Notes: generated by a model from the letters alone, not told the origin. Shown: positions 3,945-9,479, numbered from the stretch's first letter. The stretch: 64,000 nt of DNA from Candidatus Woesearchaeota archaeon (GCA_964513145.1 CAZELK010000002.1:18413-82412); one strand, 5' to 3'. Numbers and translations are program-made.

Positions 3945-6900
3945 TTAACCCAGATAACTAGGTGGCTTTTCTATTGCAGCCCTTGCTGTTCTTAAATAAT
4001 CTTCCTCAATTTCCTGATATTTTTTCAAGTCGTCAGACCTGATAGACGGTTTGACTTTTTCTAAAGCTAGCTGGAAATATTTCATGCTGACTTCAGCAGC
4101 TTTTATATTATCTCTTAATGTAAGCAAGCCAGCTTCCCTGCAAACTCCTTCAATATCTGCGCCAACATAACCTTCAGTTTTTTCTGTTAATTTATTTATG
4201 TCCACATCTTTGGAAAGTGGCATATTTTTTGTATGTATCCTAAATATTTCTAGCCTGGATTCTTTGTCAGGAACAGTAGATGAAATAATCCTGTCAAACC
4301 TTCCTGGTCTTAACAAGGCAGTATCCAAAAGGTCAGGTCTGTTAGTATTGTGTAATAAAATTGGACTTTCTCCGCCAAAGAAAGCTTCGTTATCACAACC
4401 ACATAGATCATAAACATAATCATTATAAGGTAAAATTTTTATTGATTTTATTTTTGCTCTTTTTGCATAAGATTTGTTATTTTCTTTATTTATGAATGGA
4501 TTATTATGCTTGGAAATTCCCAATCTAAAAGCTAATGAGTCTTTTTCTATAATCTTTCCATTTATTTTTCTTCCTGCTTTTGCTATAAATTTACTTATGT
4601 ATGACTTTATGCCATGCATTCTACATAACCAATTTAATTCTACAATTAATTGTTTGCTTACAGAAGTTGCTTCTATTTTTCCATCTTTGTAAAAATGACC
4701 ATCTCCAAACGTATAACTTTTTAAAAATTCTAGGAAATATTCTTTTGGAGCTTCAAATAAAAGCCCGGGAATATGTTTATTATATGCTCCTTTTCCGCAA
4801 CATCTTATGAAAAAATCAGCCAGCGGTTTAGAATAATAAACTATATTCACTGCATTATTTGTAATATATTTTATTTTATCTGGTTTTTCTAAACTAAAAA
4901 TATCATTCATAAGATTCTGAACATCAGCGTGATATTCAGTTTCATTTATATTAAAACAAAAATCAATTTCTTTTCTAGCATAACCTTCTGCTGTATAATA
5001 ACCTAATAATCTCATTAATTCAGGTGTAACTGCTACTTCATTTGGCAACTTATGCTTAAAATATTCTAAACTAAGTTCTCTTGGTCCACAAATTCCTCTT
5101 TTCCAAGCTGAAATTGTTGTTTGTGCATTTCCTGTTAATTCTGCTAATTTTTCCTGAGATAAATTATCTTCCGACATTACTAAATTATAATCATTTATTA
5201 GTTTTTCATCTTGTACATATATAGGTAACTTTAAATCAATTTCATTATTAAATTTATGATATCTTATACTGGAAAATTTTTCATTAGTTCTTACTTTGAA
5301 TGGCAGATCAACTAATATATCGCCAGTCTTTAAAGTTGCTACTGGTTTTGCTACTATTCCATGTCTAGTTCTTATAAAAACAGAATGATTGCCTGTTGTT
5401 CTAATCTTTCCACCAATATATTCTAGTTCATAAATTTTATCTACTTTATGTCTGAAAACTCCCCTGACTTTTTTGAAAGCACTATTATTAAATCTTAAAC
5501 CATATTGTGGTTTAGTATCTAAAGCTTCAAACCCGAGAGTTTTTATATTCTCAACAAGCTTTTCTATTCCTTCTTCATCTTTTTTGTAGTAAGGATCAAT
5601 AAAATCTTTTATAGGCAATATTTTGGTTTTATTTTTGTCTTTAATCATTATTTTTGTATCTCCAGTAACACTCGCACCTATAACAACAACATCAGTCAAT
5701 TCTTCCAATCCATCCATTTCTGTTAGCAATTGATTTACCATTCTTTCAGTAACCTTTGTTCCAGGATCTAGTCCTCTCTTGCCGGCTATAGCATCAATTT
5801 CATCAAAAAATATAATTGTCGGTGCAGCTTGTCTTGCCTTTTCAAATATTTTCTTGATTCCTTTTTCACTATTATGAGCTAAAATTCCCCCAAATCCAGC
5901 CACAAAATTTTCTTCTCCTGGGACAGATATATCATATACATAATTTTCATTAGGCAATTCTTTAATTTCTTTAATCATGTCAAAGAAAAGATCGCCTTCT
6001 GTTAAATCCCAATATTCCTTATATTTGCTCTTGTCTTTATCAACATAAACTAATATTTGTTTCAGATTTTCTTTACCTATAGAAAGAATATTTGAATTAT
6101 AAGAAGAATGATTCTTGGTTACTAAATTAAATAATTCTCCTGTTAAAGGAATTAAATCTGATCTAAACCATTTTCTTGATTTTATATATTGATCAATCCT
6201 GTCATTTCTTTTTTTATCAATAAACCCAATTTCTTTAAACTTCTCAAAATTCTTTACTCCCAAAATACTTATTTTTTTTGTAATGCTTCCTGTTTTTTCT
6301 TTTTTATTATATCTTGTTGCAACAATTCCAAAATCCAATAATAAATACAATAAACTATTGGCTAGATTATTGCTTACAGTTCCGGCTTCAATATTAAATT
6401 TGCCTTTTTCTTTAGGCCAATTACTTCCATCACCACTAAAATATCCTTTTAAAAAATTTGCTTTGCTTTCCTTGTCTAAAGAAAATAATAAGTCAGGTAT
6501 ATCTTTTTCATGAGCGCCAGTTTTTAGTCCCAATACATTCCTAAATAGTTTTTGTAATAATAATGAATTTATTGAAAATGCTTTTTTACTTTTACTGATA
6601 TTAAAATTTAAATTTTCACAAATTGCATGCATATCATTCCTGATTTCTTCATTTTGATTATGTAATCTTACTGTATATCCATTAAAATCCCCTTCAGCAA
6701 CCCATAATCCAACCAATCTCCAAAAATCTTTGTTTATTTCCAATATAGAATTATAATTATGTATGCTTCCCTTTAATTTTATTTTTATTTCATTAAAATC
6801 CAAGGCTAACTTTGCTTCTTTAATTAATTTATCAAATTTAGTTATTGAAACTGGCAGATTTAAGGATATAATGCTGGTCAAATAGTTTTTAGAAGTGTCT

Positions 6901-9479
6901 AAAATTTCTGCTGTTTTATCTAAACCCAATATTAATTTAGATTTTATTAAATACTCCTTAACATTAGCTACAAAAATTTCTTCATCTTCTTTGAAATTTT
7001 CATAAAGATTAATTGACTTCAAAGTTTCTCTGGGTAAGTTTAAGTTTTTTGGTATAGCTATATAACTTTCTTTTTCAATTAAATGGCTTACAGGTATTTC
7101 TGTAAATTTGCCATTTATAAAAGAAAAAACTGAATGATAATCTGTAACTTTTATTTTTCTTCCAGTTCTTGTTGTTAATTCTAATAATTTTCCCCTTAAA
7201 GGGTGTTTTATATAATCACTAATATTAGTAAATCTTATTCTTTTGTCTTTATCAAATGCTAATACCTGTACATTCTCTTTATTCTCAACAATATCCCCTA
7301 TTTTCATAAATTTAATCGAGCAGTTTTTTTTCACAATTAGCTTTTCATCATAAGGCAAGGAATCTCCCACCCATTTTGAAATTAATTCCGGTCCTTTAAT
7401 AGATATAAAATTGCTTTCACTTTCATTTGCAACTGCTTTTGCAAGTAAGGTTTTTCCAGTTCCTGGTGGTCCATACATCAGGATTCCTTTAGGTGGTTTT
7501 ATGCCTAATTTGGAAAATGCATGTGGATATTTCAATGGCCACTCAACAGCTTCTTTTAATTCTTGTTTCAGTTTATCCAAGCCGCCAATGTCTTTCCATT
7601 TTACATTTGGTACTTCGACAAGAACTTCTCTCATCGCACTTGGTCTCACTAATTTCAAGGCTTCTTTAAAGTCATTGCCATATACCCTTAATTTATCTAA
7701 AACTTCAGGTGGCAAAGGAGTATTCTCTTTAATGTCAAATTCAGATAATACTTTTCTTAAAACATTCATTGCAGCTTCTTTACATAAAGCTGCTAAATCA
7801 GCACCAACAAAACCATGTGTTATTCCTGCAATTTTATCTAAATCAACATCCTTCATTAAAGGCATGTTTCTTGTATGAATTTTTAAAATATTTAATCTTC
7901 CAGCTTTAGAAGGAACTCCAATTTCAATTTCTCTGTCAAATCTTCCAGGTCTTCTTAATGCAGGGTCAAGACTATTGGGTCTGTTTGTAGCTCCTATTAC
8001 TACGACCTTTCCTCTTGATTTCAAACCATCCATTGTAGCTAGTAATTGTGCAACCATTCTTCTTTCTACTTCTCCATAAGTTTCTTCTCTCTTAGGTGCA
8101 ATAGCATCTATCTCGTCAATAAAAATTATACTTGGTGCATTTTTTTCTGCTTCTTCAAAAATTTCTCTAATTCTTTTTTCCGAATTATGGACAATAAATC
8201 CATTCGCTATAAAATTATGATAATTATCTACTTCAATATCATAAGTTGGTTTTGTTCCAACAAAATCTATTCTATCTATTCTAGCAAAATTTAATTTTGG
8301 TAATGTATTTTTAAAATTATTTTCAGGAGTATTTTCTGCAACACAAACAAAATCTCCAATTTTTAAATCTTCTAATGGTATCCATACTAAAACATTCTTA
8401 TTTAATTTTAAGAAGGGGTGATTAGCTGACGCTTCTATTTCTTTTCCTTCTGCATTTATTTTATAAACTTTTTTATATCCGCTAAATATCTTAGATTTAA
8501 CAAGAGATTTTTTAAATTCTTTTGTATTCTCATCGAAAACAAAAACTTTTTCTGCCTTATTTATTTCTTTAATTGGCTTAGGCCCATTAGGATTTGTATA
8601 AACTTTAGTATCGCCAACTAAACACTCCCCATAAAATTTGCTGGTAACCTCAGGCCCATTAATTAACAAAAAATTTGCATCACTTTCATTTGCAACGGCT
8701 TTTGCAAGTAAAGTTTTTCCAGTACCAGGGCTTCCATGCAATAAAACTCCCTTTGGTGGTTCAATACCTAAACGCTCAAATAATTCTGGATGCTTCAAAG
8801 GCAGTTCAACCATTTCTCTTATTTTTTTAATTTCTTCACTTAATCCGCCTATATCTTCGTAAGTTACATCAGGAGCTAATTCCTCTGTAACTTCAACTGC
8901 TTTTGGATTAACTTTAACTTCAGTTGATTCTGTAATAATGACTGATTGTTTTGGATTTGCATCAACAACAATAAACTTTAAACCGCCAAAACCAAAATTG
9001 CCCATAAATCCCTGTTCAAAAACATCGAAAATATCTTCAAAAGGACTTCCTGCCATTGTCCTTCTTCTGCTTCTTGCTCCGCCTAAAGCAACAATGTCTC
9101 CTTTCACAACTGCTCTTCCCAATAATCCCCTTTTAAAAACATCAGGATCAGCTTGAACCATTACTCCTTTCTGAGCAGGAGCAATAACAACAGATTTAGC
9201 CTCTTTAACATCGCATTTTCTTACTTTTACAACTTCACCAATACCAGTTTTTGCATTTCTTCTTAAAATACCATCCATTCTTATGACAGCCTGCCCTATA
9301 TCAGTTGGATAAGCCCTGTCAACTATACCTACTGTAGCTCTTCCGCCTTCAATTTCAACTATGCTTCCGGGCTTTACATCTATCTGTCTCATAGTCTGGC
9401 TGTCTATCCTGACTATTCCTTTGTAAGCCTCTTCTTGAAGGGCTTCCATCACCTTTAATCTTGCTTCCATTGCTTCCAT
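3945..9479 (-). CDS. cdc48: CDC48/VCP-like AAA+ ATPase (N domain + D1 + D2) interrupted by three inteins
   Basis: CDC48 N-domain, then two Walker A motifs ([15 protein letters not shown] and [15 protein letters not shown]), second-region motifs (DEIDAI), and arginine fingers (RPGRFDR). Extein continuity is restored by removing three segments that begin with C/S and end with HN followed by S/T. Confidence 0.9.
4347..5672 (-). mobile_element. intein 3 in CDC48 D2 (aa 1270-1711, 442 aa) with HTH and LAGLIDADG domains
   Basis: Starts [11 protein letters not shown] (Ser1) and ends SPILLHN, followed by TNRPDLLD. Removal restores [25 protein letters not shown]. Contains an HTH ([23 protein letters not shown]) and LAGLIDADG motifs ([22 protein letters not shown]). 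Confidence 0.8.
5871..7361 (-). mobile_element. intein 2 in CDC48 D2 (aa 707-1203, 497 aa) with LAGLIDADG homing endonuclease
   Basis: Starts [10 protein letters not shown] (block A-like, Ser1) and ends GGILAHN, followed by SEKGIKKIF. Removal gives [28 protein letters not shown]-type motifs present: [11 protein letters not shown] and [10 protein letters not shown]. Confidence 0.7.
8184..8624 (-). mobile_element. mini-intein 1 in CDC48 D1 (aa 286-432, 147 aa, no endonuclease domain)
   Basis: Starts [10 protein letters not shown] and ends FIVHN, followed by SEKRIREIF. Removal gives [19 protein letters not shown] (the GESE motif). Confidence 0.8.

Follow-up and report, generated by a model that had tools for sequence, protein, structure and literature searches.

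In Anaeramoeba, inteins have been transferred between MCM, DNA polymerase and Msh paralogues as well as between sites b and d of Prp8, and the five inteins of Anaeramoeba Prp8 were reported as a new record for a single protein, the earlier maximum being four (PMC10710043). Among archaea, the MCM protein of Haloarchaea is known to possess four intein sites (PMC10643990). Here the gene of a CDC48/VAT-type AAA+ ATPase precursor is described, which occupies positions 3945-9479 on the minus strand of a 64,000-nucleotide stretch of DNA from a Candidatus Woesearchaeota archaeon (GCA_964513145.1, CAZELK010000002.1:18413-82412; the whole stretch is further called the window) and which carries three inteins, designated I1, I2 and I3. 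The CDC48 case is similar to that of Anaeramoeba in that homologous sites of paralogues hold related inteins and several inteins reside in one protein (PMC10710043); in contrast to Anaeramoeba, the paralogues are the tandem AAA domains (D1 and D2) of one archaeal polypeptide, and three lineages take part, one of them endonuclease-free. As in haloarchaeal MCM, the inteins are clustered in the AAA+ ATPase core and their occupancy varies between related genomes (PMC10643990), whereas the host protein is different and six CDC48 sites are seen over the window and the locus of the nearest genome, Woesearchaeota GCA_016185635.1 (JACPNF010000010.1; further called L001). It is very probable that the CDC48 of this Woesearchaeota-like (DPANN) archaeon was invaded independently by three class-1 inteins of three lineages and that switches of site took place within the lineages.

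The gene is a single uninterrupted open reading frame (ORF) of 1844 residues, 758 of which belong to the extein and 1086 to the three inteins. The whole precursor reaches 1034 bits on the CDC48 model TIGR01243 (cut-off 802.65), which places it in this family, and the host domains CDC48_N, CDC48_2, two AAA and two AAA_lid_3 are found in it. According to the translation the extein comes in four segments, all on the minus strand as are the other features of the gene. The first (residues 1-285; positions 8625-9479) comprises the N domain and D1 to pore-loop 1 and ends with SKFYGE; the second (residues 433-706; 7362-8183) holds the remaining D1, the linker and D2 to pore-loop 1 and ends with SKWVGD; the third (residues 1204-1269; 5673-5870) extends from helix alpha-2 of D2 via Walker B to strand beta-4 and ends with VVVIGA; the fourth (residues 1712-1844 and the stop codon; 3945-4346) runs from the D2 sensor-1 TNRP to the C-terminus. 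The original prediction, made from the sequence of the window, held that excision of residues 286-432, 707-1203 and 1270-1711 restores a CDC48. This has been borne out, as virtual splicing yields a 758-residue product with the junctions SKFYGE↓SEKRIR, SKWVGD↓SEKGIK and VVVIGA↓TNRPDL (the arrow marks the insertion point), which are identical or near-identical in 80 intein-free orthologues, where they are read continuously. When related genomes were checked for empty sites, 80 of 80 loci gave one high-scoring segment pair each to the 758-residue extein, uninterrupted over all junctions, with 56-74% identity; most of these loci carry the label Woesearchaeota, Nanoarchaeota or Pacearchaeota, and examples of their junction sequences are SKFYGESEKKIR, SKWVGESEKGIR and a third 12-letter stretch. 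Since intein-free orthologues align across all junctions, the three inteins are real, precisely bounded and sporadic.

The anatomy and family membership of the three inserts are matters of direct observation. I1 (residues 286-432; 8184-8624) is a mini-intein of 147 residues at GE↓SE of D1, which starts with CLVGDT and ends with FIVHN↓S; I2 (residues 707-1203; 5871-7361) has 497 residues, lies at GD↓SE of D2 and reads SLPYDE...ILAHN↓S; I3 (residues 1270-1711; 4347-5672) has 442 residues, lies at the D2 sensor-1 site GA↓TN and reads SVTGDT...ILLHN↓T. The predicted boundaries are exact by translation, and the Pfam and TIGR intein profiles recognise all three inserts: Intein_splicing (PF14890, cut-off 35.8 bits) is passed with 66.5, 89.1 and 51.5 bits respectively, TIGR01445 (N-terminal intein region) is above its cut-off in each of them and TIGR01443 (C-terminal intein region) in I1 and I2, while I3 gives no match to the latter. 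The ends typical of class 1 are complete (C...HN↓S in I1, S...HN↓S in I2 and S...HN↓T in I3), Ser1 being read in I2 and I3 as predicted. Block B is TDYH in I2, TGNH in I3 and the variant SANH in I1, the last being kept in the SufB and CDC48 relatives of I1. I1 and I2 were rightly placed at the homologous GE↓SE of D1 and D2 just past pore-loop 1, two residues beyond KFYG and KWVG, the pore-loop-1 aromatic-hydrophobic-Gly motifs of the two domains; the insertion point of I3 is immediately ahead of the D2 sensor-1 Thr-Asn.

In I1, no endonuclease domain was found with Pfam, in agreement with its description as a mini-intein. I2 contains the LAGLIDADG endonuclease that had been predicted for it, with 65.5 bits on LAGLIDADG_3 (cut-off 22.5) for the second module (6231-6467) and with motifs at residues ~920-929 and ~1009-1018, ending with VAEGD and FSGDG. 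I3 also has a LAGLIDADG endonuclease of its own, unmentioned in the original prediction, with 32.1 bits for the second module (4566-4733) and motifs at residues ~1490-1499 and ~1585-1594, ending with TAEGY and TFGDG; two motifs are thus present in each of the two enzymes. The helix-turn-helix (HTH) ascribed to I3 is borderline: HTH_3 matches a segment at 5064-5165, a putative DNA-recognition region which co-varies with the target, with E=1.9e-4, but its 21.9 bits lie just below the cut-off of 23.

Each intein sits inside a catalytic element, and the 1844-residue precursor would be inactive until all three are excised. Excision would proceed by the standard pathway, in which Cys1 or Ser1 undergoes an acyl shift, the chain is passed by transesterification to the Ser or Thr at +1, the terminal Asn cyclises and a last acyl shift forms the peptide bond, the product being the 758-residue CDC48. 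It could be argued that at least one intein has degenerated and fails to splice, the gene being non-functional or complemented by another CDC48 paralogue; the SANH variant of I1 may be quoted in favour of this idea, and other CDC48 paralogues are possible beyond the window. Such a state is nevertheless very unlikely: the 5.5-kb ORF is intact; none of the catalytic residues (position 1, the His of block B, the terminal HN, the nucleophile at +1) is missing; L001, with an extein 85% identical, has intact copies of the same two alleles, I1 and I2; and the SufB relatives likewise read SANH. As regards mobility, the two-motif LAGLIDADG endonucleases of I2 and I3 presumably home into empty alleles, and the lineages appear to have moved between paralogous sites, the likely cause being the near-identical motifs kept in D1 and D2.

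In the original prediction I1 and I2 were regarded as sisters, that is, as a single intein duplicated within the gene between the GESE sites with subsequent loss of the endonuclease from one copy. The two do occupy the same structurally homologous GE↓SE position, both have a +1 Ser, their C-terminal blocks are alike and the comparison of I1-family and I2-family profiles gives a homology probability of 96%, as for all inteins, which are homologous to one another. Nevertheless, when ten inteins (45 pairs) were compared by their splicing domains only (first 115 and last 45 residues, Smith-Waterman alignment with shuffling controls), the I1-I2 pair obtained a score of 62 and a z value of 4.8 and was among the weakest of all pairs, in comparison to z values of 16.4 for I1 and the intein of the MCM gene of the window, 18.2 for I1 and the intein La of L001, and 11.3 for I2 and I3. 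The meaningful alignment of I1 with I2 that had been claimed was reduced in BLASTP to a sole match, a 23-residue C-terminal splicing block with E=0.024, whereas I1-I3 gave 1.5e-4, I1-MCM intein 5e-6 and I2-I3 3e-10 over 381 residues. Even the C-terminal block of I1 is closer to those of the MCM (12/20) and aRF1 (9/11) inteins of the same window than to that of I2.

Other lines of evidence point the same way. The N-terminal strings put forward as similar have 3 of 10 residues in common, and the N-terminal signatures differ (CLxGDT with a first Cys in I1, SLPYDE with a first Ser in I2). The hhalign scores are 62-68 between the I1 and I2 families, 71 between the I1 and I3 families and 247 (E 1e-32) between the I2 and I3 families. 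The closest solved structures are the DnaB and DnaX mini-inteins for I1 and the PI-PkoII, TFIIB and VMA inteins for I2 and I3, with PI-PkoII (PDB 2cw7) as the best solved match to I2. At the level of target DNA, the D1 and D2 GE↓SE sites match in 13 of 24 central bases and the +1 Ser codons belong to different families, TCG in D1 and AGT in D2. Finally, far closer relatives exist elsewhere, namely a SufB intein with 55% identity for I1, and the D2-site and RpoA'' inteins for I2. The similarity of I1 to I2 does not exceed their similarity to inteins of unrelated sites, and a duplication of one into the other is scarcely credible, being contradicted by nearest relatives, z values, profile scores and site DNA alike. 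Judging from these comparisons, I1 and I2 are no more related than any two inteins, having a site type in common and not an ancestry, and I2 is nearer to I3 than to I1.

The relatives of I1 are to be found mainly in SufB. A word-based homologue search with I1 returned one match, a SufB/SufD fragment from a Nanoarchaeota metagenome-assembled genome with 53% identity. SufB sites predominate among the best 150 representatives of an exhaustive search (GNxG↓C...HN↓S..TM and AQY(E/D)↓C...HN↓SEVVYH), and no AAA host for an I1-type intein was present among these 150. A metagenome scan added a complete SufB mini-intein (L083) with 55% identity to I1 and LAGLIDADG-bearing SufB inteins of 401 residues (L084, L087 and L088), whose identity to I1 amounts to 38-51% in the N-terminal and 61-63% in the C-terminal splicing parts. 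Like I1, the SufB inteins of DPANN archaea (mini forms P0001 and L083, 53-55% identical to I1, and the three full-length forms) possess Cys1, a CLxGD(T/S)K(V/I)FTNP start, the block B ASANHPF and the end NFIANG(F/L)IVHN↓S; unlike I1, they reside in an unrelated host and site (SufB GNxG↓S..TMLYP, compared with CDC48 YGE↓SEKR), and some keep an endonuclease that I1 does not have. As a class, SufB inteins are well known from Mycobacterium. On sequence grounds, I1 can be considered an endonuclease-free descendant of a Cys1 lineage that is centred on SufB, where its full-length members are found. Two CDC48 inteins are closer still, as I1 is 68% identical to the intein Lb at the D1 site of L001 and 67.6% identical to an intein at the D2 site of a metagenome contig, L082.

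I2 belongs to a lineage centred on the pore-loop site of D2. The search with I2 gave 30 matches, of which 22 are in AAA/CDC48 proteins, and 20 of these 22 map to the D2 site WVG(E/K/D)↓SE, where the junction or extein is visible. The start SLP(Y/F)(D/E/K)E and the end GFGGxxAHN are shared by the homologues, and this conservation answers the doubt, raised in the original prediction itself, whether Ser707 is the true start of I2. I2 can be seen as an allele of the CDC48 D2 pore-loop inteins P0002-P0023 (annotated as AAA family ATPase in Woesearchaeota, Nanoarchaeota, Micrarchaeota and Diapherotrites), to which it is 28-78% identical and with which it shares the site WVG(E/D)↓SE, a SLPY(D/E)E start and the GFGGxxAHN end. 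There is no essential difference between them, and the copy in the window coexists with two other inteins. The closest member, with 78% identity, is Le at D2 GD↓SE of L001. More distant relatives are PI-PkoII and the RpoA'' inteins (Methanocaldococcus), the latter likewise starting with SLPYEE and residing in a host that is not homologous to CDC48.

The family of I3 is spread over several hosts. The search with I3 gave 74 homologues sharing a SVTGDTP(I/V) start and a P(I/V)LLHN end, which occupy the sensor-1 sites of CDC48 D1 and D2, the site ELNA↓SDERG of RFC-S, adenylosuccinate synthase (PurA) and, in bacterial FtsH, both the sensor-1 site AA↓TNRPD (mostly in Patescibacteria) and GVGA↓SRVRD, the counterpart of GE↓SE. 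I3 is a member of this family of AAA+ sites, and the archaeal RFC-S inteins (for example that of Methanotorris igneus) are its sister group. In a bootstrapped neighbour-joining tree the CDC48 (D1 and D2), FtsH and PurA members form one clade with 99% support, with RFC and I2 outside. I3 is 58-66% identical to D2 members, 56-57% to the D1 member of L001 and 52-57% to FtsH sensor-1 members. Its splicing-domain parts are similar alike to D1 and D2 members (mostly 55-68%), whereas the middle region, composed of the HTH and the DNA-recognition part, is 50-68% identical to D2 members and 30-42% identical to D1 members. This divergence by target type would fit adaptation to the target after a switch of site.

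The family is common to CDC48 of DPANN archaea and bacterial FtsH (P0184-P0252, 41-57% identity, two FtsH sites); the FtsH hosts are mostly Patescibacteria (Candidate Phyla Radiation), but Firmicutes, Actinomycetota, Planctomycetota and Omnitrophota are also represented. Such a distribution implies that inteins have passed between archaea and bacteria as well as from one paralogous AAA protein to another. A literature search on FtsH inteins found no relevant paper, and the main text of Novikova et al. 2016 mentions neither CDC48 nor FtsH.

How the lineages are related and which sites they occupy in other genomes are likewise matters of direct observation. The locus of L001 is syntenic with the window, and its extein is 85% identical to that of the window. 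CDC48 of L001 (L001:4382-12100, plus strand) is a single ORF of 2572 residues with five inteins, all above the Pfam Intein_splicing cut-off: four in D1 (residues 277-454, 461-608, 657-1219 and 1237-1667) and one in D2 (residues 1877-2373). La is inserted at D1 PEVT↓S and Lc at D1 QLL↓T, the already mentioned Lb occupies D1 GE↓SE, and Ld at the D1 sensor-1 site GA↓TNR aligns with I3 along the full length at 56% identity (E 1.5e-168). In contrast to the window, L001 has the I3-type family in D1 and not in D2, and the occupancy of the sensor-1 motif is reciprocal, as the D2 site is empty in L001 and the D1 site (VVVIGA↓TNRPNS, 7971-8006, minus strand), the paralogue of the I3 site, is empty in the window according to the comparison of site DNA. 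Six further database proteins have an I3-type intein in D1 of CDC48, two of them with exteins 82-83% identical to that of the window, which gives totals of seven at D2 including the window and seven at D1 including L001. The sensor-1 DNA of D1 and of the reconstituted D2 of the window is identical in 15 of 18 and 19 of 24 central bases, all differences being synonymous, and this near-identity makes cross-recognition by the endonuclease plausible.

The two other lineages also occur in both domains. P0019 has an I2-type intein at D1 GE↓SE, with a C-extein which aligns to extein residues 286-746 with 64% identity. L082, whose extein is 85% identical to that of the window, bears a mini-intein of 148 residues at D2 GE↓SE with both flanks from D2, and this intein is 69.8% identical to Lb. 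One lineage at both the D1 and the D2 motif is therefore found for the I1, I2 and I3 types alike, and hopping between the paralogous D1 and D2 sites within each of the three lineages appears from the sequences to be real. In this respect the idea of ectopic homing to the other AAA domain, as formulated in the original prediction, fails for the I1/I2 pair, yet as a concept it is borne out in other genomes. The codons at the junctions follow the type of intein in the five cases available, with GA(A/G)↓TC(T/G) for the I1 type in D1 and D2 and GAT↓AG(T/C) for the I2 type. As a footprint of co-conversion or target preference this is only suggestive, since orthologues without inteins have Ser codons of either family at D1 as well as at D2. 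It was also observed that the D2 GE↓SE site holds an I1-type intein in L082 and an I2-type intein in the window and L001, the exteins being ~79-85% identical; this alternation suggests that unrelated inteins replace one another or compete at a single site.

The sharing of a lineage by D1 and D2 could also be the result of separate invasions from outside, from SufB, FtsH or other CDC48 genes, with no transfer from paralogue to paralogue. The lineages are promiscuous across the hosts FtsH, RFC, PurA and SufB, I3 of the window is about equidistant from D1, D2 and FtsH members (57-60%), and neither the D1 nor the D2 members come out monophyletic in the neighbour-joining tree. We regard this explanation as possible and worth keeping in mind but rather doubtful, as the recognition middle region of the I3 family tracks the type of target, which fits divergence after a switch, and the I1-type trio of CDC48 (window D1, L001 D1 and L082 D2) has a mutual identity of 68-70% in comparison to 55% to the nearest SufB intein. 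Since the trio is mutually closer than it is to SufB, a single entry into CDC48 with a D1/D2 switch is simpler.

Some observations have to be set against independent invasion by three lineages with later switches of site. The members of the I1-type trio are equidistant and give no direction or number of switches, and the sampling of this type in CDC48 is thin (three) because gene callers overlook multi-intein genes. P0019 is N-terminally truncated, and its C-terminal junction alone is visible. The neighbour-joining tree could not order the D1, D2 and FtsH lineages of the I3 family. Block B of I1 is SxxH and not the usual TxxH, though conserved in the SufB relatives. It should be added that splicing itself, the activity of the endonucleases, and how and in which direction the sites were switched are what we infer.

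Concerning the gene calls, public ones for multi-intein CDC48 and FtsH genes often begin just before or inside an intein (P0002, P0010, P0013, P0014 and others). The call of P0002 (L001:10001-12100) begins with the GTG codon for the Val of WVGD and takes in no more than the final 699 of the 2572 residues. Miscalled multi-intein CDC48 genes probably account for the single match in the I1 search. Public assemblies searched for an exact match to the CDC48 of the window gave no record of it.

The window has a G+C content of ~28% and contains archaeal genes for topoisomerase VI B, MCM, aRF1, FttA and topoisomerase I. Two of them are hosts of further inteins. The aRF1 gene (41683-44292) has a Cys1 intein of 508 residues at 42214-43737 on the plus strand, with HTH_3 and LAGLIDADG domains, which directly follows the catalytic GGQ motif (MRAGGQ↓C...IVHN↓SANRFARLR); a literature search on natural eRF1/aRF1 inteins found nothing relevant. 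The MCM gene (24357-28007) has a Cys1 intein of 541 residues at 25392-27014 on the minus strand, with LAGLIDADG and HTH_3 domains, in Walker A (GDPGSSK↓C...CHN↓S), which is the classic MCM-a position. The 64-kb window thus holds five inteins, three in CDC48, one in MCM and one in aRF1, and a hidden Markov model scan of all its reading frames revealed no inteins beyond those five. ARAGORN found no tRNA over the 64 kb; Rfam gave one tRNA-like match at 31695-31750 on the minus strand (model positions 7-64 only, 32 bits), possibly an atypical archaeal tRNA or a split one.

Inteins of CDC48 and transfer between paralogous sites are already present in the literature (PMC10710043), and the comparative pattern is modestly novel. 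The CDC48 inteins of the window alone are an ordinary though rich case, in which inteins sit in catalytic motifs of an essential AAA+ protein and the host is a DPANN archaeon rich in inteins. The CDC48 of L001 with its five inteins would equal the record per protein, and would do so in a prokaryote. The value is a comparative one: six sites in one protein, varied occupancy among genomes with 85%-identical exteins, and each lineage at both paralogous sites. Public gene calls systematically truncate multi-intein genes, so that such cases are hidden and under-represented in protein databases. A bolder proposal, which we put forward tentatively and consider unlikely as it stands, is that the twin AAA domains of CDC48 serve as reciprocal landing pads between which three lineages, including an endonuclease-free mini-intein, have each moved. 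If it were true, the mini-intein would be mobile without an endonuclease of its own, possibly by gene conversion between the tandem domains or by cleavage in trans by the endonuclease of a different intein at the same site type, for example that of I2. CDC48 offers in this way a natural system in which it can be asked how the specificity of a homing endonuclease follows a target that has been duplicated, whether mini-inteins are still able to move when they have no endonuclease, and whether two unrelated inteins compete for the D2 GE↓SE site.

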